Source: a virus. Taken from it: a DNA stretch of 41,559 nt. The stretch is taken from the IMG/VR virus record IMGVR_UViG_3300045988_027176, positions 1 through 41,559 of that record; one strand, written 5' to 3'. The stretch's first letter is position 1; each line of letters begins with the position of its first letter. Under the pieces are notes generated by a model. That model made no database searches. It saw nothing but the letters and a program-made list of their open reading frames with translations, and had not been told where the DNA came from. The position numbers and the translations under genes are program-made. Shown here piece by piece: positions 8,106-41,559 of the stretch.

Positions 8106-8108
8106 GGA

Positions 8109-8240
8109 TTAGCCCTCCTTTGTTTCCGCCGCCATCAATTTCTCAATAAGCAGCTTGATGTAAACGAGCTTCTCGAAATTCTCCCATCCATCGACGCGGA
8201 GAGTGCCGAGAAGCTCCTTGATTTTATTAAGCTCGTTCAT
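8109..8240 (-). CDS. Hypothetical small protein (43 aa)
   Basis: My translation: MNELNKIKELLGTLRVDGWENFEKLVYIKLLIEKLMAAETKEG. RBS ggaggaaga. ATGA overlap with the upstream gene. Confidence 0.5.
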   Translation of the reverse strand: MNELNKIKELLGTLRVDGWENFEKLVYIKLLIEKLMAAETKEG

Positions 8241-8500
8241 TCTTCCTCCCCGGCAAAAAGCCGACGAAGCGTTACTCGGATTCCGTCATTCTGTGCGGAA
8301 ATGCTTACAAGTTTTATAAAACCTGTATACTCGTAAGATTCCCCGTTGCTTTCATAACGGATTTTTTCTAAGTTCGTTTTCTTTGAAAAGAAGTCGGCAA
8401 TCTCAACGATCGTTGATCCTGTAATGACTACATGCATATTCCCAGCAGTGCTTACGCCGAAAAAAGAACAATTAAACGCTCTGTCATTTGCAAAAATCAT
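8237..8500 (-). CDS. Hypothetical protein, 87 aa (start MIFANDR)
   Basis: RBS gaggggttaaaa before the ATG at 8500. Visibly AT-richer than its surroundings. Confidence 0.5.
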   Translation of the reverse strand: MIFANDRAFNCSFFGVSTAGNMHVVITGSTIVEIADFFSKKTNLEKIRYESNGESYEYTGFIKLVSISAQNDGIRVTLRRLFAGEEE

Positions 8501-8502
8501 TT

Positions 8503-9672
8503 TTAACCCCTCGCTAATATCCATGCATATGTGCCATCTCCGAGTTTTACATATTTCCACGTAACGAAATAATCTTTGAATTTGAAGGTCAACCCAGTTT
8601 TTAGATTATTTATAGTGGCGTATGATGCTCCTAAGTTTCCCATTATAAATTCCGCAAAGTCGTATGCGTTGGCAATGCCGGTATTTATCCAGCTATTTGT
8701 GTTGGCAGAGGTTATTGTCCCGCCGCCTATCTGACCGCCGGATATGTATCCCGCATACTCCCCATTTTGCGTGCCGGTTTGAATGCGATTTGCAAACACA
8801 TTCCCGGTAAACGTTCCGTCCGTTGCATACAGTTGCCCGTAGCTGTTTACGCGGAATTTCCCGCCGCCGAGAGCGATGCCATCTGTACCGATATAAACGC
8901 CGTTCACCGTGCCATAGAGAGAGGACAGCGCGTTATAAATGGCGTTCTCCGTGATGGTGAAACCCTTGTTCTTACTTCCAATAAATCCGGACGTTGCCGT
9001 TATCTTGCCGGTGATGTCCACACCGTCTTTCGTCGCCCTGAACACTTCCTGCCCTGAGCTTTCCAGCACAAACCCGTCCGCCGTCAGAGACCAACCAAAA
9101 GAGGCGGAATTGCCGCCGGTCTGCGTCACTCTCGCGGCAATCTCCTGCGCGTGTAGTTCCAAAGCCGCCCGCATTTCCGCTTCGCTCGTTTCTCTGGCCG
9201 TGACCTCCGCCTGAATGCTCGCGGCGTTAACTCTAAGGCTTGCCCTCGTCTCGGCAAACTGCCGGGTGGTCTTCCGGTCGGTCGGGGATTTATATGGATA
9301 CTCATGGTCAACCGCGTTCTCCTGCGGTGCGGCGATACGCGCCGCCATCAGCGTTGAGAAATTCGTTTCGTTGACATATATGCCGGAAAAAACGCCGTTG
9401 ATGGTAACGCCGTCACCCAACTCTGCCGCAGGGTCGAGCTTTGCCCATTCCGTGTCATACGGACGATAGACAAACTCCCCGATGCTCTCTAAGATGTCGT
9501 TTGCCATCTGTTGAGAACCCCACGGGCAGTCAAGCTCTAAGACGTTGTCCCCGCTCCCGGCCTCATAGAAGGAATCATCGTCCACGTTGATACGGACTTT
9601 TGTATACTTCGGGAGTTCGGGCGTCGTTGTATATCCTTTTGCGCTTCTTCCGATAAAAACCGATTCAGACAA
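8503..9672 (-). CDS. Tail protein (host-specificity or tail-tip associated) with a central coiled coil
   Basis: I place the start at TTG 9672 (RBS ggaggtga plus 8 nt), which overlaps the upstream stop. Coiled-coil segment ASLRVNAASIQAEVTARETSEAEMRAALELHAQEIAARV. Gly-rich beta C-terminal region. Confidence 0.55.
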   Translation of the reverse strand: MSESVFIGRSAKGYTTTPELPKYTKVRINVDDDSFYEAGSGDNVLELDCPWGSQQMANDILESIGEFVYRPYDTEWAKLDPAAELGDGVTINGVFSGIYVNETNFSTLMAARIAAPQENAVDHEYPYKSPTDRKTTRQFAETRASLRVNAASIQAEVTARETSEAEMRAALELHAQEIAARVTQTGGNSASFGWSLTADGFVLESSGQEVFRATKDGVDITGKITATSGFIGSKNKGFTITENAIYNALSSLYGTVNGVYIGTDGIALGGGKFRVNSYGQLYATDGTFTGNVFANRIQTGTQNGEYAGYISGGQIGGGTITSANTNSWINTGIANAYDFAEFIMGNLGASYATINNLKTGLTFKFKDYFVTWKYVKLGDGTYAWILARG

Positions 9673-18333: not shown

Positions 18334-18362
18334 GAAAAAGCACCGTGTGTTTACACGATGCT
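18334..18362 (-). terminator. Rho-independent terminator after the MuF-GNAT gene and small ORF
   Basis: On the minus strand: AGCAUCGUGU-aaac-ACACGGUGCU (one G-U pair) followed by UUUUUC. The stop codon of the 54-aa ORF lies in the stem-loop. Confidence 0.6.
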
Positions 18363-18515
18363 TTTGAACATATCAAATTCTTCGTAAGTCAGTTCCGTGA
18401 ATTCTTTCCCTGTCTCTCTGCAATATTCTCGAATCCGCTTGAAATTATAGCCCGGCGAGCTGTCGGGAAACGGATCAGTCAGAGCGCCGTAATTGTCAAG
18501 AGGATTCTCCGCCAT
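18351..18515 (-). CDS. Hypothetical small protein (54 aa) overlapping the end of the MuF-GNAT gene
   Basis: My translation: MAENPLDNYGALTDPFPDSSPGYNFKRIREYCRETGKEFTELTYEEFDMFKSIV. Its ATG lies 20 nt inside the upstream gene. No clear Shine-Dalgarno, so expression would depend on coupling. Confidence 0.35.
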   Translation of the reverse strand: MAENPLDNYGALTDPFPDSSPGYNFKRIREYCRETGKEFTELTYEEFDMFKSIV

Positions 18516-20271
18516 AGTATCTGTCATATAGTTTTTTCGCGCTCCTTTCTTCGATGGCCATAATTCTAAGTCTTGGGTTAATGAGCGTTGCGCCGAGCGA
18601 TTCTTGATAATGCTTAATCAAATCCGACTTGGCAGTAAAGTATACATATCCGTCAAAACCTTGTTTGAAGCTCTCCCGAACAGCCTCTGCAAACAAATGG
18701 CCGCCTACACCAGAATACTCCTTACTTAGAAATGCAGGGTTGTGCGGGTTGTTAAACGGAGCAGCTTCGACTATATCAATCTTTACGGCATAATTGTTTG
18801 GATCCGGCTTTAAGGCAATTAAACCCTGTATGCGGTTATCTCCATTCGCTTTAATTCCGCGAATTGTATACCCGTTCTTACGCGGAATCGTCCAGTCAAA
18901 CTCCCAGTCCTTAAAATCGCGTTTTGTTGGAATAACCTCAACGACGGTGGTGTTGACAAATTGTCCGTCATTCATTCTTTTAAGGCAAGGTGTAAGCTCG
19001 TCAACCTCGATTTTAATTATACCATTTTCAGGCTGTTTTGCAATATTTTTTGCAGCTTTCTGCGCTTCCCGTGCTTCTTTCGGCCCGAACTCCGCGATGT
19101 TCCCACGCTCGTATTGTGGCCGCAGTCCTGCCGCCTTACTGAAAGCCTCGTATTCCTCGTTTAGACGACGATACCGTACAGACTTGGTCGTATACTCCTC
19201 ATCGTCTCCGCGTCCTTTAGCAGCTATTAGCTCACGTTTAACTTTACGCAGCGATGCTTCAACCTGCCTCTGCTTTTGTGTCGCTTCGTAAAAGGTGTAT
19301 TGCTTGCCCTCAAACTCAAAAGGCGGCGGGTCGATGTTCTCCAATTCCTCATCGGTGTATGTCCGCTCGGAAACACCCTCGATCCAGATATGGTACATAT
19401 GGCGGCAGTTTGCGCCGCACAAGCCGTCCACCTCGTCAAGGCCGCAGACCTCATAGATGGACGGGTAAATATCGCCGGTACGTACGGAATAAACGCGCCC
19501 CTGCCATTTCTTGTGGCTCGCCCATGGCGTTTTGCCCTCTCCGTCACGCGCTCCGCGGTGCGCCGTAACCTCCCTGTATGGCGTGTCAAGCAACGTCGCC
19601 GTCTGCTCGGTGTACTGCCGGGAAAGCTGGGTAACGCCAGTCATAACGGCTCTGCGGGCAGCAACGTCAACGCGGTTATGCCAGCCGGATTCATAGTCAA
19701 CGTACTGCAAGCCGCTGTCCGTCAGCATCTTCGTTGCGTCACGGATCGCCACGTTATAGCTCTGCCCGCTCTCAACGCGCATCAAGGCATCGTCAAGCAC
19801 GCGCTGGTACATACGGCCTATATCATCGACCTTTACCGTGCCGTCCGGCGCTCGGTACGCAAAGCCCATGCTTCGGGTAATGTTCGTCAGCTCTCCGAGC
19901 GTCTGCATCTCAATGGCGTTGATTTCCTGCATGAACAGGTCGGCATTGAAGTTGTTTTCACCGAGAATGAGGTTGTCGTCGATCAGCGTATCAAAATACT
20001 GCTGATTGCGTTGAACGGCCTTGTTCCATACGGTGTCAAACTCGCTCTGTGTGAGCTTTAGGGTCTTTCGGATATACTCGTTGATTTTTTTGTAATCGTA
20101 TCCCCTCCGCTGCAAAGACCGTATATGCTCTATCGCCGTCTCCGTCATTTCCCCGGTCATGGCAACACGGGAGCATATGTCCTCAAGGATTTGCTCTTCT
20201 AAGCGCTGATATAGCCGCATAAGCGGCAGGGGCAGGGAGTACATGAACTCCGGCGTGATCGGGTATTTCAT
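18496..20271 (-). CDS. Head morphogenesis protein (Mu F / SPP1 gp7 family) fused to a C-terminal GNAT-like acetyltransferase domain
   Basis: 591 aa. MuF signature ...TAHRGARDG...HKKWQGRVYSV...GANCRHMYH. The C-terminal ~170 aa (IQGLIALKP...VKIDIVEAAP...YSGVGGHLFAEAVRESFKQGFDGYVYFTAKSDLIKHYQESLGA) have GNAT-like beta4-alpha3 and beta5-alpha4 patterns, including a G-x-G-G CoA-loop-like motif. Confidence 0.75.
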   Translation of the reverse strand: MKYPITPEFMYSLPLPLMRLYQRLEEQILEDICSRVAMTGEMTETAIEHIRSLQRRGYDYKKINEYIRKTLKLTQSEFDTVWNKAVQRNQQYFDTLIDDNLILGENNFNADLFMQEINAIEMQTLGELTNITRSMGFAYRAPDGTVKVDDIGRMYQRVLDDALMRVESGQSYNVAIRDATKMLTDSGLQYVDYESGWHNRVDVAARRAVMTGVTQLSRQYTEQTATLLDTPYREVTAHRGARDGEGKTPWASHKKWQGRVYSVRTGDIYPSIYEVCGLDEVDGLCGANCRHMYHIWIEGVSERTYTDEELENIDPPPFEFEGKQYTFYEATQKQRQVEASLRKVKRELIAAKGRGDDEEYTTKSVRYRRLNEEYEAFSKAAGLRPQYERGNIAEFGPKEAREAQKAAKNIAKQPENGIIKIEVDELTPCLKRMNDGQFVNTTVVEVIPTKRDFKDWEFDWTIPRKNGYTIRGIKANGDNRIQGLIALKPDPNNYAVKIDIVEAAPFNNPHNPAFLSKEYSGVGGHLFAEAVRESFKQGFDGYVYFTAKSDLIKHYQESLGATLINPRLRIMAIEERSAKKLYDRYYGGESS

Positions 20272-21686
20272 TCATTTTCGCCCGATATAAGGCTCTCCAT
20301 CTTCGGCAGGGCGGCTTTTGCCGTCGCCTCGTCCTCGTTCATATAACGCATTCTGAACTCATACGGCTGCATGATCCCCATCTTCACCATACGCGCATCT
20401 CGGTTAAACTCCGATTCCTTATCCTCAATGATGGAATCGTCGAAATCAACCGTGATCTCAACGTCCTCATTCAGCCCGGCATTCATATAAGCATTGCCCA
20501 TTCGGAGCAGGACGCGGCACAGCTCAATGAGAGCGCTTTCAAGGATGATCTCGTGCTTTTTGATAGTGCGGAACATCTCGGAGTTTTCGCTTATAATCTG
20601 CGTCGCTGTGGAGACGTTGCCGTTGTCGTATTTGTAATGGTTCTCGCCAAAGCCGCACTTGCTCGACAGAAGATTTAGCATGTCCTGAATGCCGGCGTTG
20701 TGTTCCGCCGTGCGGAGGTTCATGTTGATCTCTTTGATGATATCGCCGTCCTTCCCGTCGGCGGGAAGAACATAAAAAACAACGTCGCTCGTATCGAATA
20801 GCGGCTCGCCCGTGTGGAAATTCTTTGTAGCCTGCGGTTTGAGCATGACGCGCTTCTTGCCAAGCTGAAACTCATTCACATAGCTGTCGTATGTCAGGTC
20901 AACGCCCTTTAGTTGATCTATTGCGTTCGCAAACACCGAAATGCCCATCGGCAGGGTTGCATCAACGTTGTTGACGATGTTCAGCCGGTCAATGACGAAC
21001 ATCCGCTGCGTGAACGGCGTATGCACGACCGGAGCTACATTTTCAAACCCCGGAACATCGGCAAGGTTCACCTCCGACAGGCTCCCCTTTGTGTCACGAT
21101 ACAAAAGGTTTTCGATGTCGTATGTCCCCTTTTCCGTTCGCTTATGTATGCAGATGTAAAGGTAAGAATCTTTCTTTATTGCCTTGTGCGATCCGAACGC
21201 GCATTCGGTTACGATGCCGTTCTCCCATGTAAGGGGAAGGATAAGGTCAGCCGGTACATAATCGATGCGGATTTCCCCGCCGCTGCCGTTCACCTTGCCC
21301 GTCTGCTCATCGACAGACGCATTAACGACCGTCGGAACATACGCGACAGTGCCGCGAGCTGCCTTGATCTCCTGCATCTCGTTCGATTTGACGGTGAAGT
21401 TGTTCCGCTCAAAAACGGAATCGATGAAGTCCTGCTCTGGCTTCCCCTCAAGCGTTATCTTGCACTTTTCGTTCAGCAAAAGGTTCGCCCAGTCCTCGCA
21501 GACCTTTTTCGCCATGCCGAGAGAATACAGGCGACAGGGGACATATTTCATGCCGTTCCAGATGCGGTAACGGTGGAACTGCTTCACATACCCGTCATAC
21601 CAGCTCTTCCAGTTCTGAATGTAAGTGTAAAACTCTTCCGGCACGGTGGTATATCCACGTGCCCGTAAAACCTCGTAAATGTTCAT
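20268..21686 (-). CDS. Portal protein (SPP1 gp6-like)
   Basis: 472 aa, between terL and the MuF gene. ATGA overlap with the downstream gene. Confidence 0.85.
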   Translation of the reverse strand: MNIYEVLRARGYTTVPEEFYTYIQNWKSWYDGYVKQFHRYRIWNGMKYVPCRLYSLGMAKKVCEDWANLLLNEKCKITLEGKPEQDFIDSVFERNNFTVKSNEMQEIKAARGTVAYVPTVVNASVDEQTGKVNGSGGEIRIDYVPADLILPLTWENGIVTECAFGSHKAIKKDSYLYICIHKRTEKGTYDIENLLYRDTKGSLSEVNLADVPGFENVAPVVHTPFTQRMFVIDRLNIVNNVDATLPMGISVFANAIDQLKGVDLTYDSYVNEFQLGKKRVMLKPQATKNFHTGEPLFDTSDVVFYVLPADGKDGDIIKEINMNLRTAEHNAGIQDMLNLLSSKCGFGENHYKYDNGNVSTATQIISENSEMFRTIKKHEIILESALIELCRVLLRMGNAYMNAGLNEDVEITVDFDDSIIEDKESEFNRDARMVKMGIMQPYEFRMRYMNEDEATAKAALPKMESLISGENE

Positions 21687-23299: not shown

Positions 23300-24392
23300 A
23301 TAAGCACCTCGTAGACAACGCGAGAACGCTCTCTATGGTTTCGGACATGTCATAATATCTATAATCACCCAAACGGCCACAAACGATTAGACCGTCCTTT
23401 TCCGCTCTCAATCGGTATTTCTGGTACAGGGCTTCACTCTCTGCGTTATTGACAGAATAAAAAGGTTCTTTCCCTCGTTCCCATGCGTCAGGATATTCGA
23501 TTGTCAGTACTGTTTTCGGGCTTTCTGTGTCAAAAACGAAGTGCTTATGCTCTATAACCCTAGTATGGGGGATTCTGCTCTCGGTGTAATTTACTACAGC
23601 CACACCTTGATAGTTGTCTATATCAACCGTCATCTGGTCAAAACGCAGGCTTCGCCACGGGAGTTCGCCATACTCATATCTGTAAAGCTCATCGAGTGCG
23701 CCAGTATAAACGATCTTCTTTGCCTTATACTTTTCCTTCGCTTCTTCAAAGGACGTATTTAAGGCTACGTCTGTACCGTTTAACAGTGATTCAATGAGTT
23801 TATTATACCCCTCGATAGGGATGCCCTGATATTTCGCATTATAATAGTTATTGTCCGCTGTATACCGAACTGGGATCCGCCGCATTATATCCGGCGGAAG
23901 TTCGGAACAAGACTTGCCCCATTGCTTTTCGGTGTACCCTCGGATAAACATCTTATAGATGTCTTCTCCGACAAGCGACAGCGCGTGTTCTTCTAGATTC
24001 TTCGCTTCGCGATCAAGCACAAGTCTCTGGCGGTTGATCTCCGCTTTCGCCTGAAAAGGGAAATTCACACCCCACAACTGCCGGAATGTGTTCATGTTAA
24101 ACGGGAGGTTGTAGCACCGCCCTGCGTAGCAGGCAAGGGGGCTGTTAATGAAATTATTGAAATGAACGAACTGATTGACGAATTTCCATACCTCGTCATT
24201 GTTCGTGCGGAAAATGTGCGCTCCGTATTTATGAACTGCTATCCCCTCAACATTTTCTTGGTAGCAGTTTCCGCCGATATGGTCGCGCCGATCCACGGCA
24301 ATACAGGACTTCCCAGCCTTTGTCGCCATATACGCAAAAACAGAGCCTGCAAGCCCTGTTCCAACTATTAAGTAATCGTAGTTTTTTTCCAT
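23283..24392 (-). CDS. glf: UDP-galactopyranose mutase
   Basis: Start MEKNYDYLIVGTGLAGS (FAD GxGxxG). Collinear by eye with bacterial Glf (HKYGAHIF, NLPFNMNTF, LVGEDIY..FIRGYTEKQWG, RIPVRYT.DNNYY...YQGIP, IEHKHF, GRLGDYRYYDM). The 35-aa N-terminal extension in the ORF track is rejected. Confidence 0.93.
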   Translation of the reverse strand: MEKNYDYLIVGTGLAGSVFAYMATKAGKSCIAVDRRDHIGGNCYQENVEGIAVHKYGAHIFRTNNDEVWKFVNQFVHFNNFINSPLACYAGRCYNLPFNMNTFRQLWGVNFPFQAKAEINRQRLVLDREAKNLEEHALSLVGEDIYKMFIRGYTEKQWGKSCSELPPDIMRRIPVRYTADNNYYNAKYQGIPIEGYNKLIESLLNGTDVALNTSFEEAKEKYKAKKIVYTGALDELYRYEYGELPWRSLRFDQMTVDIDNYQGVAVVNYTESRIPHTRVIEHKHFVFDTESPKTVLTIEYPDAWERGKEPFYSVNNAESEALYQKYRLRAEKDGLIVCGRLGDYRYYDMSETIESVLALSTRCLYGEDC

Positions 24393-25987: not shown

Positions 25988-26017
25988 CAAAAAAGAGCCG
26001 GAATCGCTTCCAGCTCT
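25988..26017 (-). terminator. Strong rho-independent terminator immediately upstream of the ParB-like gene and late operon
   Basis: On the minus strand: AGAGCUGGAA-gcga-UUCCGGCUCU (10 bp, one G-U pair) followed by UUUUUUG. The RBS and ATG of the ParB-like gene follow within 27 nt. Confidence 0.75.
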
Positions 26018-26030
26018 TTCGAGTGTACCC

Positions 26031-26040
26031 ATTATAGCAC
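26031..26040 (-). promoter_or_regulatory. Extended -10 promoter-like element (TGcTATAAT) about 14 nt upstream of the terminator stem
   Basis: The minus strand reads gTGcTATAATgggtacactcgaa and then the terminator hairpin. There is no good -35. Confidence 0.35.
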
Positions 26041-26059
26041 TTGATTTTGGCTTTTTAGG

Positions 26060-26248
26060 CTAATCTTTCAACGTCGGCGTGAAACTTTCGCTTTTAAGCA
26101 TCCCCATGATCCTGCCCATTTCCGCAAGCCTCCCTGCGGAAAATTGTGTACCACCGCCATTTAATTTACAAGCTTCAATAAGCTCAAGTCGCCGCTCTTT
26201 GAAGAATTCATAAAGTCTGTCTGCGTCAATAGCTCTCATTAGTCCCAC
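26060..26248 (-). CDS. Hypothetical protein, 62 aa
   Basis: ORF with a GGGGTGGG RBS-like sequence. Overlaps the upstream gene. Confidence 0.5.
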   Translation of the reverse strand: MGLMRAIDADRLYEFFKERRLELIEACKLNGGGTQFSAGRLAEMGRIMGMLKSESFTPTLKD

Positions 26249-26487
26249 CCCATCATCTGAAAAATTTCGTCAAAATTAAAACATTTGCTTATGCCGGTAG
26301 TATCCTCCGTTTTCTGTAAAAGATGGCGGTCAATTTCTTTCTGCGCTTCAATGTGCTTTTCTCTCATAGTTTCAGAATAACCGTTGTGCTCATCCGTTAT
26401 CATGTACTCACAGCCACGGTACTCATAGAACAGATGAACGGCGTACCCGTTTTTGTCTCTGACCTTACCCTTGTATTTCGCTCTCAT
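26239..26487 (-). CDS. Hypothetical protein, 82 aa
   Basis: ATGA overlap with the upstream gene. RBS ggagatg. Confidence 0.5.
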   Translation of the reverse strand: MRAKYKGKVRDKNGYAVHLFYEYRGCEYMITDEHNGYSETMREKHIEAQKEIDRHLLQKTEDTTGISKCFNFDEIFQMMGWD

Positions 26488-26702
26488 TTCAGCATCTCCT
26501 TTCCAGCAAGATCAAACGCCATCTTGATTGCAGCGTCACGCGCTGCCGATCCTTTACCGTGTACGGTGTGTGTTCCTTTCCCGCGTTCTTCGACAAGAAA
26601 ATTGGCCTTTTCGCCAGTGTTCCATTGGTATATAGCAATGTTCGTTCCTACCAGCCAGAAATGATTCCCGTTGCGCTGCCACTGTTTTCCTCTAAAAGTC
26701 AT
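26484..26702 (-). CDS. Hypothetical protein, 72 aa (start MTFRGKQWQ)
   Basis: RBS gaaaggacaacggc before the ATG at 26702. The track start at 26765 is a TTG with no RBS. Confidence 0.45.
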   Translation of the reverse strand: MTFRGKQWQRNGNHFWLVGTNIAIYQWNTGEKANFLVEERGKGTHTVHGKGSAARDAAIKMAFDLAGKEMLK

Positions 26703-26751
26703 GCCGTTGTCCTTTCTGGGCGGTTTAGCCGCCGCCCTTCGGCTTTTTATC

Positions 26752-27060
26752 TCACGCGATTTCAAACCAATCGCAGAACTTCGTCATGTAGTGCTTTGCG
26801 ATGTGGTTTGTCTCTGCTGCCGCCCACTTCGTGGAGCGCTTTTCCATAATCGCCGTGTAGGTCTGAGCTTTAACACCGCTCTCAACCTTTTCGACCTTGC
26901 CGCTCTTTTCCATGATCCTGATGAGATACATTGTATCCCGGTCGTGAATCGCGTCGGCCTCAATAACAGCCTCGGCAATAGTCTTCGCGTTCAAAGCGCG
27001 ATACTCGGAAGTCATGGGCTTGTAGAATGCGCTGTAATCGATGTAAAGAATGTATTTCAT
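26752..27060 (-). CDS. Hypothetical protein, 102 aa
   Basis: RBS gaaaggaaattgaa. First gene behind promoter/operator cassette copy 2. Confidence 0.55.
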   Translation of the reverse strand: MKYILYIDYSAFYKPMTSEYRALNAKTIAEAVIEADAIHDRDTMYLIRIMEKSGKVEKVESGVKAQTYTAIMEKRSTKWAAAETNHIAKHYMTKFCDWFEIA

Positions 27061-27093
27061 TTCAATTTCCTTTCTGCCTGTCGGCTTGTTTAT

Positions 27094-27143
27094 TTGCCTT
27101 ACAGTCGTAGTTATAAACTATTTGGTTTAGAATGTCAACTGTT
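27094..27143 (-). promoter_or_regulatory. Promoter/operator cassette copy 2 (-35 TTGACA 27133-27138, 17-nt spacer, -10 TATAAC 27110-27115)
   Basis: 46 of 50 positions are identical to 1362-1411. The differences fall in one flanking half-site (CGACTGT versus CAACTGT) and in the central palindrome. Confidence 0.7.
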
Positions 27144-27180
27144 ATTTTGAACTTTTTGGATTATTTTTGAAAAGTTTTAT

Positions 27181-27209
27181 TTGACAAGCAAAAGTATATA
27201 GTTTACAAT
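27181..27209 (+). promoter_or_regulatory. Plus-strand promoter TTGACA-17-TACAAT for the HTH gene
   Basis: ttgacaagcaaaagtatatagtttacaat. The spacer contains tatatagttta, which is shared with the palindrome of cassette copy 1. Confidence 0.65.
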
Positions 27210-27230
27210 AAGATCGAAAGGGGTGATCCA

Positions 27231-27440
27231 ATGACTGCTAAGCAATTAGTTGATATGGCGCTGGCTTACGCCGGGATGAGCAAATCAGAGCTTGCCCGCC
27301 GCCTAAACTGGTCTCCGCAACTGTTAAGCAAGCGCCTAAATACCGGAAAGTTTTCCGTTGAAGAATGGGGCATTATTGCAAAAGCCATTGGCGCAGAACC
27401 ACATATCGGCTTTATTTTCCCGGACGGAAAAGAAATATAA
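27231..27440 (+). CDS. Small XRE-family HTH regulator, 69 aa
   Basis: SKSELARRLNWSPQLLSKRLNTGKFSVEEW is a classic XRE HTH. RBS gaaaggggtga. It is the only plus-strand gene inside the minus-strand lytic block. Confidence 0.8.
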   Translation: MTAKQLVDMALAYAGMSKSELARRLNWSPQLLSKRLNTGKFSVEEWGIIAKAIGAEPHIGFIFPDGKEI

Positions 27441-27444
27441 AGCA

Positions 27445-27476
27445 AAGGGGTAGTCATTCGACTGCCCCTTTTTTTG
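27445..27476. terminator. Bidirectional terminator between convergent genes
   Basis: 11-bp stem aaggggtagtc/gactgcccctt, followed by ttttttt on the plus strand and by a U-rich tract on the minus strand. The stop of the 27454-27873 gene lies inside the stem-loop. Confidence 0.7.
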
Positions 27477-27873
27477 TAAGTCCAAAGTTCTCTGCTGTTC
27501 TTTCGATGAATTTATTATGCCAGTTCTTAGCGGTTCCGTAGGAAACGAACAGGGCCATAGCTGCCCCATGCAAAGTATGTGTGCGCTTAAAAAAAACCAT
27601 TTCGATGAGCTTTACGCGATCCGCGCCATTAGGATACCGCATGGTGTCCCGTATGGTCTTTTCGACAGCTAAATACTCTTTCATATCATCGAAAGGCAGC
27701 TCGCGCAAGGCTACGCTTTCAGCGGCTCGGTTTACGTCCGTCCCTCGTCCTGTTGCGCCGTATGCAGGAACAACAGACTGCTCCCGTATATTCCGCAAAT
27801 CCTCACAATGCATCGGGTACGCCCGGATGATCGCTTTCACGAATCCCCACCATTTGTATCTTGGTTTGCTCAT
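27454..27873 (-). CDS. Putative late-gene transcriptional regulator (RinA/ArpU or sigma region-4-like)
   Basis: 139 aa. The C-terminal part (LHGAAMALFVSYGTAKNWHNKFIERTA) looks like a region-4-type HTH. Its position between the early and late blocks fits. Confidence 0.4.
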   Translation of the reverse strand: MSKPRYKWWGFVKAIIRAYPMHCEDLRNIREQSVVPAYGATGRGTDVNRAAESVALRELPFDDMKEYLAVEKTIRDTMRYPNGADRVKLIEMVFFKRTHTLHGAAMALFVSYGTAKNWHNKFIERTAENFGLTKKGAVE

Positions 27874-35942: not shown

Positions 35943-36187
35943 TCCGCCGCCTCCTTTGCCTCCGCGAGCTTCTTCCGGAAATCGTCAAGCTCGGCGCGCA
36001 GGGCGATATTCTCCGTGCGCATCTTCCAGTAGTCATCCGCGAGACGCGCCGCGTCGTTTTTTCCTGCTCTATCTACGAGCTCGCGGTATTCAGCGACTGT
36101 GATCCCGACGGTAAACATTGCCGTGCTCTCGCCGGTCTTTTCGTCAACGACGAAGCCGGTGTCAAATTCGTTCTTGTAGTAAGCCAT
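35939..36187 (-). CDS. Hypothetical protein, 82 aa
   Basis: RBS ggaaaggaac. ATGA overlap with the sak gene downstream. Confidence 0.5.
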   Translation of the reverse strand: MAYYKNEFDTGFVVDEKTGESTAMFTVGITVAEYRELVDRAGKNDAARLADDYWKMRTENIALRAELDDFRKKLAEAKEAAE

Positions 36188-36546
36188 TATTCAAGTTCCT
36201 TTCCATCAAAAATTTCGTTTAATGCTTTGATCTCTTCTTTGTCAAAATTACAGATTAAAAGCTCGTGGAAGCGGTCGCGGAGGTTCTGGGCGCAGTCGTC
36301 GCAGTAGATTCCCTCGGCGTACCGTCCGCACAAGGGGCATTTATTCCCCCATTCGATACGGTCAGACCCGCAGGTAGGGCAGCGCTCCCAGCCGTATCCC
36401 TCGTCGGCATAGACGACGGGGTAGAATCCGTCCTCGCCGCAGTCACGGCAGCGGCACGTTCTGGACACTTGACAAATCCGCCTCCTTTGCGGTAGAATTT
36501 GAAGCAAGGTTGTTTTTCCTGTAAGCGTCGTCGGTGTCATCTCCAC
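36187..36546 (-). CDS. Cys-rich zinc-ribbon protein (start uncertain)
   Basis: CRCRDCG...CPTCG...CPLCG...CDDC. The first ~30 codons overlap the upstream gene, so the true start is probably internal (a GTG near 36463, after aaaggagg). Confidence 0.45.
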   Translation of the reverse strand: MEMTPTTLTGKTTLLQILPQRRRICQVSRTCRCRDCGEDGFYPVVYADEGYGWERCPTCGSDRIEWGNKCPLCGRYAEGIYCDDCAQNLRDRFHELLICNFDKEEIKALNEIFDGKELE

Positions 36547-36901
36547 CGGCGGCGCTTTCGCCTTTTTCCGCCCATGTGGTGGAACATTCAGACTGCGCTA
36601 GCCATGCAAGGACGAGCGATTCCAAAAACGTCTGCATGGATGCGATGCCGTTTCTTTCCAGCGCCTGTTTAACGCGCTGTGCGGTACTTTCGGTCAGGCG
36701 GCACTGTAAGCGTATGGGCTTAACTCGGCGCGGTCTGCGGGGCTTTCGCTGCGTAACGGCGTCGTAAATTTCCTGCGCACGTGCACAGAATTTCACGCCG
36801 TAATCGTTCGTGTGAAGCGCCATGCTCACCGTTCCCTTGTTGGCTTTCGGGAACTCTTCCCGGAGGGCGGCGGCGATGGCCGTGCAACGTGTGTCGTTCA
36901 A
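36443..36901 (-). CDS. Hypothetical protein, 152 aa
   Basis: TTG start with RBS gaggagg. No motif recognised with confidence. Confidence 0.45.
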   Translation of the reverse strand: MNDTRCTAIAAALREEFPKANKGTVSMALHTNDYGVKFCARAQEIYDAVTQRKPRRPRRVKPIRLQCRLTESTAQRVKQALERNGIASMQTFLESLVLAWLAQSECSTTWAEKGESAAGGDDTDDAYRKNNLASNSTAKEADLSSVQNVPLP

Positions 36902-37116
36902 TGCCGTCCTCCTCTCTGCATGATCGACGTGTCCGGCATTTGAAGCCAGCGGCAGCAGTCATCGGCGAGGCTCGAAAAGCCGTAGACCGCGAAGATGCCC
37001 TCGATGACGGCAAAGCCGAGACCGTTATATTTTCCGAATTTCCAGACGAAGAAGATCACAAGCGCCAGAAGCGTCATGATCGCGGTGGTGGCGAACGTAG
37101 CCTTTCGTTTTGTCAT
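36898..37116 (-). CDS. Small two-TM membrane protein, 72 aa (start MTKRKATF)
   Basis: RBS aggaaaaacaacc before the ATG at 37116. TM helices AIMTLLALVIFFVW and GFAVIEGIFAVYGF. Confidence 0.5.
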   Translation of the reverse strand: MTKRKATFATTAIMTLLALVIFFVWKFGKYNGLGFAVIEGIFAVYGFSSLADDCCRWLQMPDTSIMQRGGRH

Positions 37117-37127
37117 GGTTGTTTTTC

Positions 37128-37316
37128 CTACTTTCTGCGGCGGTTGGCCGCTTTTTGTACTCTCTTTGTGATGTCGATGGTGTAATCGGCAATCGGGTGC
37201 AGCTTTGTCCGCTCTTCCCGCCGGGCTTCGCATCCGGCCTTAAATTCTGCGTACCGGGGGCAGGATGCGTGGCAGCCGACGAAGCGCTCGGAACAGTCCT
37301 TACACGGGGCTGTCAT
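37128..37316 (-). CDS. Cys-rich small protein, 62 aa
   Basis: RBS aaggagagg. CKDC...CHASC. Confidence 0.5.
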   Translation of the reverse strand: MTAPCKDCSERFVGCHASCPRYAEFKAGCEARREERTKLHPIADYTIDITKRVQKAANRRRK

Positions 37317-37428
37317 CTGGTGTCCTCTCCTTTTTGCGTTGGTTCAAGGGCTCAACGGTGACGTTGAAGTATTTCGCATAAGTCTGCCAAACAATAGCGG
37401 CAAAGCGCTCGCCGTCCGCTACCGTCAT
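37300..37428 (-). CDS. Hypothetical small protein, 42 aa (start MTVADGER)
   Basis: The ATG lies 1 nt after the Cro-like gene's stop. The upstream extension in the track overlaps that gene. Confidence 0.35.
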   Translation of the reverse strand: MTVADGERFAAIVWQTYAKYFNVTVEPLNQRKKERTPDDSPV

Positions 37429-37429
37429 T

Positions 37430-37642
37430 TCAGTCTGCACCGTTTCCCCTCCGTTCCTTGATGATCTCATCGACAGCCGCCTCAAGTTTTGCGCGTCCAT
37501 TGCTTGGGCTTCGCTGACCATTCAGGATCATGCTGACATACGCCTTGTGGTAGCCGAGCCGATTGGCAAGCTCCGTGTTCGTGATGCCGTTGTTATGCAT
37601 CTTGCCGATCAGCCGACCCGTCCATGCTTCGGGAAGATTCAC
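37430..37642 (-). CDS. Cro-like XRE-family HTH regulator, first gene of the leftward early operon
   Basis: 70 aa, GTG start with RBS gggggtga. ITNTELANRLGYHKAYVSMILNGQRSPS is an XRE HTH. Divergent from the CI-like gene. Confidence 0.75.
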   Translation of the reverse strand: MNLPEAWTGRLIGKMHNNGITNTELANRLGYHKAYVSMILNGQRSPSNGRAKLEAAVDEIIKERRGNGAD

Positions 37643-37677
37643 TTTTTCACCCCCATCAAATTATTTTGATTTGATAG

Positions 37678-37706
37678 TTGCAAAAGTTAACACCGTCTGC
37701 TATAAT
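37678..37706 (+). promoter_or_regulatory. Rightward promoter TTGCAA-17-TATAAT (candidate repressor-maintenance promoter)
   Basis: ttgcaaaagttaacaccgtctgctataat. The inverted repeat atcaaa-ttat-tttgat and the direct repeat ttgat ttgat lie just upstream (37655-37675). Confidence 0.6.
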
Positions 37707-37760
37707 GAAATTGCACTTACAAAACAGCAGAAACGGGGCGCGAAAGCAACTGCGCTTTAT

Positions 37761-37839
37761 TAACTTCGCTAACCATGATTGCATTATAACCCATGACGTT
37801 ATTGAAGTAAACATCTTTTTGCTAACTTCGGTAACTTCG
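37761..37839. promoter_or_regulatory. Repeated TAACTTCG(C/G)TAAC operator-like sites flanking the leftward promoter
   Basis: taacttcgctaac at 37761-37773 and taacttcggtaac at 37823-37835. The second overlaps a third taacttcg at 37832-37839. Confidence 0.55.
37783..37811 (-). promoter_or_regulatory. Leftward promoter TTTACT-17-TATAAT (candidate early lytic promoter)
   Basis: The minus strand reads gTTTACTtcaataacgtcatgggtTATAATgc. Confidence 0.5.
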
Positions 37840-37869
37840 GCATTCTAAACAAAAAGGCAGGGGTGTTTT

Positions 37870-38190
37870 ATGGCGTTTTACCAACAGTTTATTAAGTTAT
37901 GTAATACCACCGGAATATCGCCATCCCGCGCAGCATTAAACGCCGGACTTTCTAAAACATCTGTAAATGGATGGAAAAGAGGGCAAACGCCAACCGACAA
38001 GAACATTGCGAAACTCGCAGAGGTGTTTAATGTTCCTGTTTCCTACTTTGACGAAAAAGAAGAAAAGCTCCCTGTCGATACCGACAAAGAGCTTTCCCCT
38101 AAGTATTCTGATTGGCAAATTTTAGCCGCCTACGAAAAGGCGGACGACAATGTTAAGGAAGCAATCCTGCTTCTTCTAAAATTAAGGTGA
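37870..38190 (+). CDS. CI-like XRE-family repressor
   Basis: 106 aa. ISPSRAALNAGLSKTSVNGWKRGQTPTDKNIAKLAEVFNVPVSYF is an XRE HTH with a C-terminal extension. Divergent from the Cro-like gene. Confidence 0.8.
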   Translation: MAFYQQFIKLCNTTGISPSRAALNAGLSKTSVNGWKRGQTPTDKNIAKLAEVFNVPVSYFDEKEEKLPVDTDKELSPKYSDWQILAAYEKADDNVKEAILLLLKLR

Positions 38191-38459
38191 TAGCCTCTCG
38201 CAAAGCGGGATCCTGAAGTGCTTTTTCAATTTCAGCTTTTTCGTTCTCCGCAAGTAGATTCTTTTCGTTCTCGCTCATTCTGATCCTCCATTATGAATTT
38301 ATAGAATTTGAGCAGGAAGTCGATCCTGCGGGCGTAGCGATCCGGTGCGTCAACGGGTGTTTGCATTTTATCACTTCCCTAAATTGTTTTTCGACAATTT
38401 TCTGTTGATTCTATCGACATAGAAATTTATTCTGAACATAGCCGCATGGTGGTAACGAG

Positions 38460-39491
38460 ATGGAATACATTCCGCACTTCCGATATGGGCGCGCATATAA
38501 ACTTGTCCCGCCTCCGCCAAATTCGTTGTACGAAGATCGAGAGCTCATAAATTATGCAGAGAAAATCGTATGCGACGGCAAAATGTACGATCTGGCAAGC
38601 GTTGAATCAATCTATTCGATTCCTATTCCAGATTACGGGAAAATGCACATAGGCTCTATCGAAAGTCCCGTTTTTTACCTTGAGTACGTTCTCCGTATGC
38701 ACGCAAGCTATCTCTGGAAAAAGAAGGAATACCGGTTAGCTCTTGTTTGTCTGGGGAAGTCTACACAGATGATGCCGTTTTCGCCAATTGGATACCTTAA
38801 AGAAACCTACTACCGTATTGTCGATTGGGAAGAAGAACTTGGTAAATTTCAAAAAGCGGAAGAATGGGAACAATGGATAGAAGATAATGCGCCAAGCATC
38901 GAACAAGACGTTTTTACTAATGTATTGAAAGGTTGCAGGGAACTGCACACAGATCTTGTTTATTCGGCTTGGGCGGGTGCGCAAAGCGCAGTAACAGCAA
39001 AATATCAAGGGAGAGTTTACAGCATTTCAGGAAAAGACAAGCGATTCCCTACGCTGCCTGATTTTATGAAAGGGCCGCAGAACATTTGCTATTTGTCCGG
39101 CCCTTTTACATGTTGGGGAGACAAAAGCCTTGATACGATCTATTACAAAGGGAAAGACGCAAACGCCATTTCAGTAAGTTGGAGACCGTTTAAGGACGAT
39201 AGATCGCCGCAAGAAATTGCCGGATATAAAAACACGATTGAGAAAATCATGCAGCCCAAAATATCTCGGTACAAGATGCGTGTATACTTCCGAATTAAGT
39301 ATTATTTTCCTGAAAAGCTGCCTAAAACAAAATCGGCGATTTATCGCCTTTCGGAAGAAGAATTTGAAAATCTAATTTCTGCCGCGGAGTGCGCCGGTGT
39401 CCAACTTCCGGAAAAACCCGTTTACAAAGAACCGATAGACCCAGAGCCAGATTATAACGGCGGACACCGTAAACCATTTTTCGTTTTCTGA
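38460..39491 (+). CDS. Lysogeny-module cargo protein, 343 aa, function unknown
   Basis: Clean ORF on the lysogeny strand between the repressor and the integrase. Visibly AT-richer than the phage backbone. A hairpin follows it. Residues ~170-215 carry a short MuF-like motif (SAWAGAQSAVTAKYQGRVYSI). Confidence 0.6.
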   Translation: MEYIPHFRYGRAYKLVPPPPNSLYEDRELINYAEKIVCDGKMYDLASVESIYSIPIPDYGKMHIGSIESPVFYLEYVLRMHASYLWKKKEYRLALVCLGKSTQMMPFSPIGYLKETYYRIVDWEEELGKFQKAEEWEQWIEDNAPSIEQDVFTNVLKGCRELHTDLVYSAWAGAQSAVTAKYQGRVYSISGKDKRFPTLPDFMKGPQNICYLSGPFTCWGDKSLDTIYYKGKDANAISVSWRPFKDDRSPQEIAGYKNTIEKIMQPKISRYKMRVYFRIKYYFPEKLPKTKSAIYRLSEEEFENLISAAECAGVQLPEKPVYKEPIDPEPDYNGGHRKPFFVF

Positions 39492-39500
39492 TTTAAGATC

Positions 39501-39532
39501 GCCCCGGCGTTGGCGGCAACCTCTGCCGGGGC
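39501..39532 (+). terminator. Terminator-like GC hairpin after the 343-aa gene
   Basis: gccccggc-16 nt-gccggggc. Only a short tt follows. Confidence 0.4.
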
Positions 39533-39689
39533 TTCGGGTAAGGTGGTAAACCGACACGTCTGCCACATCTCAAGCGTACCCGCTCTTGCCCATAAAGTCC
39601 ATGTTGTAAATCACAAATCAGGAGGAAGATTCAAGAACCGTTCCCAAAACTTTCGGGAAATCCAACAACTGAATGGAGATGGAGAAAAA

Positions 39690-40250
39690 GTGTCCGCGCT
39701 CACAGACCTACAACCTTACTTAGACGAGTATCCAGCCAAACTTCGCAAAGCGAAAAATGCCAGCGGCTTCACCCTGCAAGAGTTGTCAGACCTTTCAGGC
39801 GTTCCTTATAACAACGTATGCGACACAAATGCAGGGCGGGTCAAGCACCCGCTCCTTTTTTATGCCGCTGCCACTTGCAAGGTATTGAATCTATCGCTGA
39901 ATGAGCTTGTCGGTCTGGATGAACAGCCGGACACACAGCATGTCCATGATCTGGAATTAGAGAACGTGCGGTTATCCGGCGAAGTAAAGCATCTGCAAGA
40001 AATGAACGCAGGGCTGAGAAAGCAGGGGGAAACCCACACAAGGACAATTTATATGCTTATAGGCGTATGCAGTATTCTTTTGTGCGCCGTTGTATGGTAC
40101 GTCATATTTGACATCAAGGTAGAGACCGCCGGTATTTTCCGCTCGGCTGGGACAAGCATTTTTGCGGGCGTCCTCGCCCTGATACTGAACGCCTCCGTCG
40201 CAACCATCATTTACGCCTTCAAAAGCATTTACAAGGGGAAAAAGAAATGA
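39690..40250 (+). CDS. Membrane-anchored XRE-family HTH protein
   Basis: I place the start at GTG 39690 (RBS ggagatggag). HTH FTLQELSDLSGVPYNNVCDTNAG, a coiled-coil-like segment, and two C-terminal TM helices (IYMLIGVCSILLCAVVWYVIF and IFAGVLALILNASVATIIYAF). ATGA overlap with the integrase start. Confidence 0.6.
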   Translation: MSALTDLQPYLDEYPAKLRKAKNASGFTLQELSDLSGVPYNNVCDTNAGRVKHPLLFYAAATCKVLNLSLNELVGLDEQPDTQHVHDLELENVRLSGEVKHLQEMNAGLRKQGETHTRTIYMLIGVCSILLCAVVWYVIFDIKVETAGIFRSAGTSIFAGVLALILNASVATIIYAFKSIYKGKKK

Positions 40251-41545
40251 GAGTTGCACTTTATGTCCGCGTCTCCACGGAAGAACAAGCCGTTCACGGC
40301 CTTTCCGTCGATGACCAGAAGGACAGCCTGAAAAGATGGGCGGAGGAAAACAAGCACAAGGTCGTTGATTATTACGTCGATGCCGGGGTAAGCGGCAGGA
40401 AAAGCGTGTCAAAGCGCCCTGAATTGCAGCGGCTTCTGTCCGACGTGGAAGCGGGGAAAATCGATCTCGTAGCGTTCACAAAGCTCGACCGGTGGTTCCG
40501 AAACATCGGGGAATTTTATAAGGCGCAGGAAGTCCTCGACGCGCACGGCGTTGTCTGGCAAGCGACATACGAGGATTATGAGACCGCCACAGCCGCCGGA
40601 CGGTTAAAGGTCAATATAATGCTGTCCGTCGCGCAGGACGAGGCAGACAGAACGTCAGAGCGTGTTAAACGGATCATGCAGCACAAGCGGGAGCTTGGCC
40701 TTTGCCCCGCGGGTAAAACGCCCATCGGGTTAAAGGCCGTCGAGAGCCGCCTTTGCATCGATGAGGAAACGGCGCACATTGCTAGGCGAATGTTTGAAGA
40801 TTACATCGCAACGGGAAGCGTTAACCACGTCAAAAAGATGCTCGTTTCCGAATTTGGAATAATGCGAGCGAATCATCATATAAAAGGCGCATTGAGCAAC
40901 GAGAGATATATCGGCCTTAACAACGGAATAAAAGTCTGCGACGCGCTGATCCCGCCGGAGGATTTTGCCCTTGTACAACGGATGCTGACGGCAAGAAGCA
41001 TTCGCAACAACGGATCAAAGCATACTTGGCTTTTCTCCGGCCTTGTCTGGTGCGCCGAATGCGGCCATCGTCTTGTGACGCATTCAACACGGCAACGTGG
41101 GACAGACTACTTCTATTACCGCTGCAAAAACTATGAAATTGGCATCTGCCGCCACAAAAAGAGAATCAACGAGGCGACGCTTGAAAAATATCTGCTTGCC
41201 AAGCTGCCAATCGAGGTACAGGCGCACAATGCAAAGCTCAAAGCAGGAAAAACAAAGCCGCCGGTTGATACGGCGGCGATCAAGCGGAAAATGGACAAAC
41301 TGACAGACCTTTACCTCGCTGATCTCATAAGCCGCGAGAAATACGAAATAGAATACACAGCATTAAAAGAAAAACTGAACGTACCGCCAGAGCCGAAGCC
41401 TATCAACGAAGAACTTGTCATGTCTCTATTGGACGCATATGACAAACTTCCGCCACGTGGAAAAAAGGAAGTGTGGAATCGCTTCATTCGCCGGATTGTA
41501 GTTTCAGAAAACGGCGACATCTTTTTTGAACTTGTTTGGCTATAA
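40247..41545 (+). CDS. int: Large serine recombinase (integrase)
   Basis: 432 aa. The N-terminal resolvase domain opens MRVALYVRVSTEEQ (catalytic Ser). Then a recombinase domain, a zinc ribbon CAECGH...YYRCKNYEIGICRH, and a C-terminal coiled coil. Confidence 0.93.
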   Translation: MRVALYVRVSTEEQAVHGLSVDDQKDSLKRWAEENKHKVVDYYVDAGVSGRKSVSKRPELQRLLSDVEAGKIDLVAFTKLDRWFRNIGEFYKAQEVLDAHGVVWQATYEDYETATAAGRLKVNIMLSVAQDEADRTSERVKRIMQHKRELGLCPAGKTPIGLKAVESRLCIDEETAHIARRMFEDYIATGSVNHVKKMLVSEFGIMRANHHIKGALSNERYIGLNNGIKVCDALIPPEDFALVQRMLTARSIRNNGSKHTWLFSGLVWCAECGHRLVTHSTRQRGTDYFYYRCKNYEIGICRHKKRINEATLEKYLLAKLPIEVQAHNAKLKAGKTKPPVDTAAIKRKMDKLTDLYLADLISREKYEIEYTALKEKLNVPPEPKPINEELVMSLLDAYDKLPPRGKKEVWNRFIRRIVVSENGDIFFELVWL

Positions 41546-41559
41546 AGAACCTTAACACC
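41505..41559. repeat. 55-bp terminal direct repeat, copy 2
   Basis: Identical to bases 1-55. Confidence 0.95.

Follow-up and report, generated by a model that had tools for sequence, protein, structure and literature searches.

A family of lysogeny-module proteins related to the C-terminal half of MuF2 head proteins and its possible role against incoming phages

Why would a gene between the repressor and the integrase of a phage carry a motif of a phage head protein? The question is raised by the IMG/VR virus record IMGVR_UViG_3300045988_027176, of which positions 1 to 41,559 were analysed (this whole stretch of 41,559 nucleotides is called the window). A sequence-only reading had singled out a plus-strand open reading frame (ORF) of 343 aa, here called the cargo gene, as a lysogeny-strand gene carrying a degenerate copy of the phage's own MuF motif, and had suggested an ADP-ribosyltransferase (ART)-like enzyme or a decoy or competitor of the head protein of incoming phages. 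The ORF was confirmed exactly, and its position between repressor and integrase was borne out, with one further ORF before the recombinase (Table 1). We found that the cargo protein belongs to a separate family, called FAM here, and that its C-terminal half (residues 152–318), judged by sequence comparison, descends from the C-terminal half of a MuF2 head-internal protein. The protein has two modules and no enzyme-like fold or motif, and its family stands in lysogeny modules and defence islands.

The parallel that had been drawn by eye is present in the cargo protein at residues 167–216, and its counterpart lies at residues 234–294 of the 591-aa MuF2 protein of the resident phage. Comparison of single proteins was marginal. 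BLASTP of the cargo protein against the resident MuF2 gave 9/17 identities (E = 0.069, borderline), and the cargo protein alone scored 11.2 bits (E = 0.17) against PF06152 (Phage_min_cap2, MuF2), whose gathering score is 26.3 bits, and E = 0.12 against phrog_581 ('minor head protein'). The family-level comparison, however, was secure and indicates true homology. A search of 5.8 billion proteins returned 53 homologues with identity down to 24%, and the weakest of them are annotated as minor capsid proteins. PF06152 was matched at E ≤ 0.01 by 26 of 50 aligned relatives (best E = 1.3e-11), and P0049, P0039, P0257, and P0324 exceeded its gathering score (28.8, 30.2, 37.6, and 40.2 bits). The match to the profile is partial and covers only positions ~205–340 of 1–366. 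When the FAM alignment (A1, 50 rows) was compared by hhalign with the alignment of the resident phage's MuF2 branch (A4), cargo residues 153–219 were aligned with MuF residues 219–299 (probability 83%, E = 8.5e-6) in the same register as the parallel seen by eye. Comparison of A1 with the alignment of the Bacillales head MuF2 branch (A5) extended over 161 columns and placed cargo residues 152–318 on residues 183–343 of the 347-residue head protein (probability 99.9%, E = 3.5e-33). The match was thus real, and its extent had been underestimated, with ~165 residues rather than ~50 being MuF-derived. Foldseek comparison of the full-length model with BFVD also returned viral 'minor capsid protein' models (best E = 2.7e-12). 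For the N-terminal module, no MuF2 match was found in the hhalign comparisons with A4 and A5. No direct sequence match to PF04233 (MuF1) was obtained, and PDB sequence searches with the family profile and with the resident MuF2 gave nothing relevant.

Is the cargo gene a copy of the MuF gene of its own phage? This part of the sequence-only reading did not hold, although positions that are putative ligands in relatives are indeed lost (S176, T179, and Y211). The family is closer to A5 than to A4 and the cargo hidden Markov model (HMM) scored only 2–3 bits on the resident MuF2; thus, the cargo gene is not a copy of the resident gene. In a scan of GTDB species genomes the same HMM gave 103–123 bits with ~347-aa proteins from Bacillus, Paenibacillus, and Sporosarcina, and by tblastn the cargo protein shared 32–38% identity with these Bacillales head genes over residues 165–292 (~127 aa). 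All 25 of the Bacillales head MuF2 genes are immediately 3' of a portal gene, one of them checked with Pfam-annotated neighbours. The two head branches are themselves distant (hhalign A5 versus A4, E = 2.9e-5), and FAM has diverged from the resident MuF2 as deeply as the head branches have from each other. FAM is therefore an old, separate family and the sister of one MuF2 branch, that of Bacillales.

The cargo protein is predicted to be soluble, with no transmembrane segment and no signal peptide (the maximum of the Kyte-Doolittle plot with a 19-residue window was 0.91), and its full-length AF2 model was confident (predicted local distance difference test, pLDDT, 92.4; predicted TM-score, pTM, 0.84). 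In its N-terminal part, a beta/TPR-like module (N-module) replaces the N-terminal half of MuF2; this module has no Pfam domain and, in PDB structure comparison, no enzyme-like fold. In the MuF2-homologous half, residues 152–249 form a small beta core that holds both conserved motifs, residues 250–318 form a long helix and a helical tail (LPDxAPKSxxxYxRMK..N..Y in the corresponding part of the relatives), and residues 319–343 are a clade-specific tail (EPxDPxPxYxGG). R185, G191, D246, and R248 are invariant in the family. The positions common to the head-type and cargo-type proteins are D165, L166, C176, C179, K181–S188, G191, F196, P197, C210, H211, S240–F244, D246, and R248. Foldseek of the full-length model against PDB returned TPR proteins only (E ≥ 0.2). 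A core-only model (residues 160–301; pLDDT 92.7) had no match among 350,542 PDB chains (best E 8.6), and neither sequence search nor Foldseek revealed a solved homologue of the MuF2 core in PDB.

The CxxC and C-H positions flanking QG[RK]VYS are presumed to be metal ligands. Every one of the 26 head-type proteins examined has them (25 are true head proteins; the other, L078, was later moved by hand to the cargo class on its genomic context), as do 51 of the 59 cargo-type loci from GTDB. In A1, CxxC is present in 20 of the 50 rows and serine is at position 176 in 24. The clade of the window has S176, T179, and Y211 at the ligand positions and W241 in place of asparagine, and C210 alone is retained. 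Since the rest of the core is strongly conserved, this clade is a stable subfamily and not a product of decay.

Several natural proteins indicate that the N-module is separable from the rest of the protein. The cultured temperate Blautia phage Montmirail encodes a 343-aa 'hypothetical protein' (WAK79202.1; L092 3983–5014, equal to ON453898.1 1467–2498) between its regulator and its integrase. This protein has the same N-module (33% identity, E = 5e-18) and an unrelated C-terminal half (~200 aa) with no Pfam or PHROG match, and experiments on the N-module could start from this gene. In proteins of 230–269 aa the beta core is absent and the N-module is joined directly to the helical tail, which matches phrog_4611 ('minor head protein', E = 2e-7 to 4e-3). 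There are also core-only proteins of 167–190 aa, and these are encoded directly after S24-type repressors. At another locus (L097 363–8209), a 196-aa protein consisting of the N-module only is clustered on the same strand with a Sel1-repeat protein, an AAA ATPase, and a KAP NTPase.

Where do FAM genes occur? In an exhaustive HMM search of 1.84 billion representatives, clustered at 50% identity, the number of clusters rose from 417 at E ≤ 1e-30 to 1133 at E ≤ 1e-10 and 2526 at E ≤ 1e-3. Head-type MuF2 proteins are among those in the two looser sets, and most of the best 150 clusters cover both modules; the family itself thus comprises at least 417 clusters. GTDB contained 59 unique cargo-type loci. 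All but one are from Clostridia (Oscillospiraceae, Acutalibacteraceae, Ruminococcus, Gemmiger, and Lachnospiraceae), and the exception is from Selenomonadaceae. An integrase gene was found at most three genes downstream on the same strand at 32 of the 59 loci (tyrosine type 21, serine type 11), an HTH regulator at most two genes upstream at 32, and both at 27; five of the loci without both run off the contig. None of the 59 had a portal or terminase gene within 6 kb. IMG/VR contained 162 viral contigs that encode a relative. Among the best 80 of these contigs there were 62 unique proteins, with a regulator at 51, an integrase at 34, one or the other at 55, and an adjacent portal gene at none, so that no portal was adjacent at any of the 121 loci from GTDB and IMG/VR together. 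The usual order is repressor, FAM gene, integrase. The repressors are short HTH proteins or of the S24 type, and the integrases are tyrosine or serine recombinases. These flanking genes are of unrelated types, so the FAM gene acts like a mobile cassette that favours one slot. Next to FAM there was no conserved partner gene. In the window, the ORF that separates the cargo gene from the integrase was considered as a partner and rejected, since beyond this phage lineage only one locus (L013) shares it.

Some FAM genes are in other settings. A 394–399-aa form adjoins PD-Lambda-1 (DUF4041 + T5orf172, E = 2.6e-162) in defence islands (L027, L028, L047, L030, L041, and L046), and at L027 the upstream genes encode PDC-S31 (DUF2971) and a Fic protein (SoFic/PDC-S04). 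The whole island of L027 (2832–9433) is next to a serine recombinase and consists of PDC-S31, Fic, a 316-aa gene, FAM, a SHOCT-domain protein, and PD-Lambda-1. In L004 (6122–11185), AAA(lid_6)x2 is followed by FtsK_SpoIIIE + FtsK_gamma and then by FAM. A mobilisable element (L184 5192–10720, L185 6790–12318) encodes FtsK, a 1135-aa fusion of FAM to AAAx2, an FtsK_gamma protein, and Fic, and P0203 and P0257 are direct fusions of FtsK_gamma to FAM. An FtsK translocase, FtsK-gamma, AAA(lid_6)x2, and FAM may together make up an unnamed conflict system. Triads of FtsK, AAA, and FAM genes also stand in mobile elements beside Fic, HigB/A-like (Gp49 + HTH_37), and TIR genes, with varying gene order and fusions. 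Most family members, including that of the window, are solo genes without FtsK or AAA partners.

What could half of a head protein do in a lysogen? SPP1 gp7 reaches the interior of the procapsid through strong binding to the portal, binds DNA, and plays a supporting part when infection starts (PMC6316719, PMC4493119). Prophages are known to encode blockers of tail assembly or DNA packaging, namely Tab, Tai, and TerI (PMC10884400, PMC11364771, bioRxiv 10.1101/2025.02.27.640495), and the sie genes of Firmicutes phages such as Ltp are located in lysogeny modules, are transcribed while the phage is a prophage, and exclude other phages (PMC3952083). The idea of a decoy or competitor of the head protein is compatible with all of our findings and is the leading hypothesis, which we put forward tentatively and somewhat short of an even chance: the cargo protein would be a cytoplasmic MuF mimic, expressed in the lysogen, that disturbs incoming phages at the portal, packaging, or DNA step. 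Since the gene is co-oriented with the repressor and the integrase, the prophage would make the protein together with them in the lysogen. The MuF half would then engage the portal/packaging vertex of a superinfecting siphophage, or the DNA handled there, without supplying the function of MuF, and the TPR-like module might supply bulk, oligomerisation, or a second contact. As a result, the invading phage would yield defective or non-infectious particles or would fail to establish. The resident phage might be spared because its own MuF2 is from a different branch. Self-sparing is plausible, as the resident MuF2 is of the A4 branch in all three examined phage genomes that carry the MuF-derived half (the window, MT835513, and MT835475); the resident MuF2 of Montmirail, which has only the N-module, is also of the A4 type. 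With still more reserve, FAM as a whole might be a widespread single-gene anti-phage strategy of prophages of gut Clostridia, in which the captured C-terminal half of MuF2 is redeployed from the lysogeny module and from FtsK/AAA systems and poisons the portal/DNA-packaging vertex of rivals.

Several observations weigh against a MuF mimic. The cargo protein does not have the N-terminal half of MuF2, which may hold the portal-binding part of MuF. Tab and TerI need dedicated self-immunity proteins, and none was identified for the cargo gene. The loss of the putative metal ligands in the clade of the window could mean that the function has changed. The 270-bp gap 5' of the cargo gene showed no sigma-70-like promoter, and thus its expression would need read-through from the repressor promoter. 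The recurrent links and fusions to FtsK, FtsK-gamma, and AAA+ would fit a target such as DNA, or a DNA pump of the host type, better than the portal specifically. Moreover, the cargo protein matched none of the families of PADLOC-DB v2.0.0 at E ≤ 10, in agreement with the sequence-only reading, which had recognised no defence family, and guilt by association with defence islands is weak evidence.

A second explanation is a sensor of the abortive infection type, in which the MuF half recognises the portal/packaging complex and triggers a toxic or growth-arresting N-module or a host partner. The separable N-module, its combination in Montmirail, in the same slot of the genome, with an unrelated C-terminal half, and the shorter proteins with the N-module and helical tail only would fit such a design, because domain swapping is typical of sensor/effector defence proteins, and the neighbours in defence islands would fit as well. 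However, the N-module has only TPR matches and neither an enzyme-like fold nor a Pfam domain, and the protein has no pore or transmembrane segment. The core-only proteins are encoded in the same place, behind the repressor, which suggests that the MuF half is sufficient by itself. We consider a sensor unlikely.

The FtsK links suggest a third explanation, that the MuF half binds DNA ends or a DNA pump, alone or with FtsK-like or AAA+ partners, and acts on foreign DNA that enters or replicates in the cell or on the host FtsK/SpoIIIE rather than on the portal. The FtsK, AAA, and FAM triads are found in two unrelated arrangements (L004 and L184/L185), P0203 and P0257 are FtsK-gamma fusions, and gp7 is described as a DNA-binding protein. 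However, most FAM genes are solo, and no DNA-binding fold was recognised in the models. We consider a DNA-directed factor quite unlikely.

The slot between repressor and integrase in Firmicutes elements often holds an anti-repressor of the ImmA type. The cargo gene could serve its own phage, either as a regulator of lysogeny and induction or as a chaperone of the portal or MuF during assembly, and its orientation suggests that it is probably co-transcribed with the repressor and the integrase. An ImmA-like anti-repressor was rejected, as there is no HExxH motif in the 343 aa and no Peptidase_M78 match, and FAM co-occurs with S24-type self-cleaving repressors as well as with short HTH repressors. 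FAM genes are also found outside prophages, in defence islands and mobilisable elements, and the resident MuF2 is only distantly related. We consider a role for the resident phage improbable.

An ART-like enzyme is excluded for nearly all purposes: although MuF domains are often fused to ARTs, the confident core model had no PDB match, the full model matched only TPR proteins, and the core has no R-S-E or H-Y-E triad, no conserved ExE, and no conserved glutamate (E252, the only Glu or His conserved at ≥70%, is outside the beta core). The grouping of MuF with ART folds in the sequence-only reading is probably explained by these fusions. In the comparative-genomics papers, MuF is a structural or DNA-packaging domain that is packaged in the head and frequently joined to ARTs and other effectors, and it is not presented as an ART fold (PMC5512222, PMC9503650, PMC3482391). 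A functionless, decaying remnant of a head gene, for which the lost Cys/His ligands might speak, is refuted by the intact frame across hundreds of clusters at 24–99% identity, the invariant residues, the architecture and position conserved across unrelated prophages, and the confidently predicted fold.

How does FAM compare with known systems? The MuF superfamily, including the MuF2 branch (PF06152), was described by Jamet et al. 2017 (PMC5576092), who took a location directly behind the portal gene as the defining feature of a MuF gene; the literature further characterises MuF proteins by a role as carriers inside the head. The Bacillales head MuF2 proteins (Bacillus, Paenibacillus, and Sporosarcina; for example P0053 of Metabacillus bambusae) have the homologous C-terminal half and share DL..C..CAKYQGRVYSISGxDxRFP, C-H, SNRPFxDNRT, and the helical tail with FAM. 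Unlike them, FAM has the beta/TPR-like module instead of the N-terminal half, is never next to a portal gene but in lysogeny modules, defence islands, and FtsK/AAA operons, and in the clade of the window has lost the CxxC and His ligands. According to Jamet et al., the same superfamily includes SPP1 gp7 and phage Mu gpF (MuF1, PF04233), but gp7, the paradigm that has been studied by experiment, is a late-made virion component whereas the cargo gene is on the lysogeny strand. Lysogeny-module copies of MuF are not mentioned by Jamet et al. or in the other papers retrieved, and no description of FAM was found in the literature on MuF, minor head proteins, defence, and lysogeny modules. While the MuF superfamily itself is known, the occurrence of MuF2 as a half-domain in a new architecture and a new genomic setting is new.

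With Tab (Pseudomonas aeruginosa), Tai, and TerI (Listeria), infection proceeds and infectious progeny are blocked, and by analogy the cargo protein may act in the same manner. These systems have identified anti-immunity partners, whereas none was found for FAM. To our knowledge, Tab, Tai, and TerI did not arise from the structural proteins they interfere with, and we know of no sequence relationship between them and FAM. Ltp and Sie2009, superinfection exclusion proteins of Firmicutes phages, occupy the same genomic slot as the cargo gene, but they are membrane-anchored proteins or lipoproteins that block DNA entry, while the cargo protein is predicted to be cytoplasmic and is unrelated in sequence. 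A membrane Sie-type protein was accordingly rejected as its identity. With the Montmirail protein, the cargo protein shares the N-module and the slot but not the C-terminal half.

Half of a MuF domain has thus moved into the lysogeny modules of many unrelated temperate phages and into defence islands. The family is large, diverse, and abundant in Clostridia of the human and animal gut and is absent from PADLOC v2.0.0, which makes it a candidate for defence catalogues. The separable N-module and the FtsK/AAA fusions offer handles on what the MuF core binds. If the mimic model is true, FAM would be a structurally explicit addition to the defences that block virion assembly or packaging, and phages would recycle their own structural domains as weapons against competitors.

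Table 1. Coordinates of the cargo gene, its parts, and other features of the window
Feature	Position	Strand	Details
Cargo gene (FAM member)	38460..39491	+	ATG start, 343 aa
N-module	38460..38894	+	residues 1–145; two beta hairpins and TPR-like helices (model)
MuF2-homologous half	38913..39413	+	residues 152–318
Stretch noticed in the sequence-only reading	38958..39107	+	residues 167–216; KYQGRVYSISGKDKRFPxLPDF with S176, T179, C210, Y211
Second core motif, S-W-R-P-F-x-D-D-R-S	39177..39206	+	residues 240–249; SNRPFxDNRT in head proteins
Cro-like HTH gene, divergent from repressor	37430..37642	-	
Promoter-like site before repressor	37678..37706	+	
CI-like HTH_3 repressor, directly 5' of cargo gene	37870..38190	+	Pfam HTH_3 E = 2.2e-8
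Small antisense ORF in repressor-cargo gap	38153..38278	-	41 aa; GGAGG ribosome-binding site
Small antisense ORF in repressor-cargo gap	38232..38366	-	44 aa
Promoter-like site	38394..38365	-	
Promoter-like site	38436..38408	-	
ORF between cargo gene and integrase	39510..40250	+	246 aa from TTG; likely start near 39689
Large serine recombinase (integrase)	40247..41545	+	Resolvase E = 4.7e-32 and Zn_ribbon_recom
Head MuF2 protein of the resident phage	18496..20271	-	591 aa; PF06152 over residues 6–377, E = 3e-75
Part of resident MuF2 aligned with cargo	19375..19617	-	residues 219–299
Variable C-terminal extension of resident MuF2	18496..19128	-	
ORF overlapping the stop of the resident MuF2 gene	18351..18527	-	58 aa
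SPP1-type portal gene, directly upstream of resident MuF2 gene	20268..21686	-	PF05133 E = 6.9e-20

The cargo gene has a GC content of 0.433 and a third-position GC content (GC3) of 0.43, compared with a GC content of 0.521 for the window and a GC3 of 0.58–0.68 for the integrase, MuF, and portal genes. The lower GC that had been noted for the ORF is thus real, but it does not single the gene out. Comparably low values were obtained for the repressor (0.427) and for the intergenic DNA (0.424), so that the low-GC patch spans the entire 37.5–39.5 kb segment. The portal gene of the window is 17 kb from the cargo gene and on the opposite strand. The ORF between the cargo gene and the integrase had no Pfam or PADLOC match; read by eye, its N-terminus looks HTH-like and its C-terminus hydrophobic. 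A twin of the entire prophage, in which this ORF was called with 186 aa, is present on a metagenome scaffold of 54 kb, with TatD and GAPDH genes beside its insertion site. An Rfam scan of 36000–41559 gave no match. The gap between the repressor and the cargo gene contains two small antisense ORFs and two minus-strand promoter-like sites. The antisense ORFs are conserved (88–100%) only in close relatives of this phage, and one of them is called as a gene in the twin contig.

The resident MuF2 protein consists of the PF06152 domain and a variable C-terminal extension and is of the polymorphic 'MuF toxin' type. Its relatives are 98–99% identical over the first 381 aa, with total lengths of 548–605 aa, and many of them carry PF15542 (Ntox50), while the version in the window has a different extension, with no Pfam match and no PDB sequence match. 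The immunity genes of MuF toxins are expected directly after the toxin gene and to pair with the toxin domain (PMC5576092). The possibility that the cargo gene encodes an immunity protein against injected MuF toxins was set aside, as the 58-aa ORF occupies the expected immunity slot. A hint at the host comes from the name of one relative of the resident MuF2, 'phage minor capsid protein [Hominenteromicrobium sp.]'. Further low-GC patches (0.40–0.47) are located at 26001–27500, 8001–9000, and 23501–24000 in a phage that is otherwise 0.50–0.60, and they may contain other acquired cargo genes.

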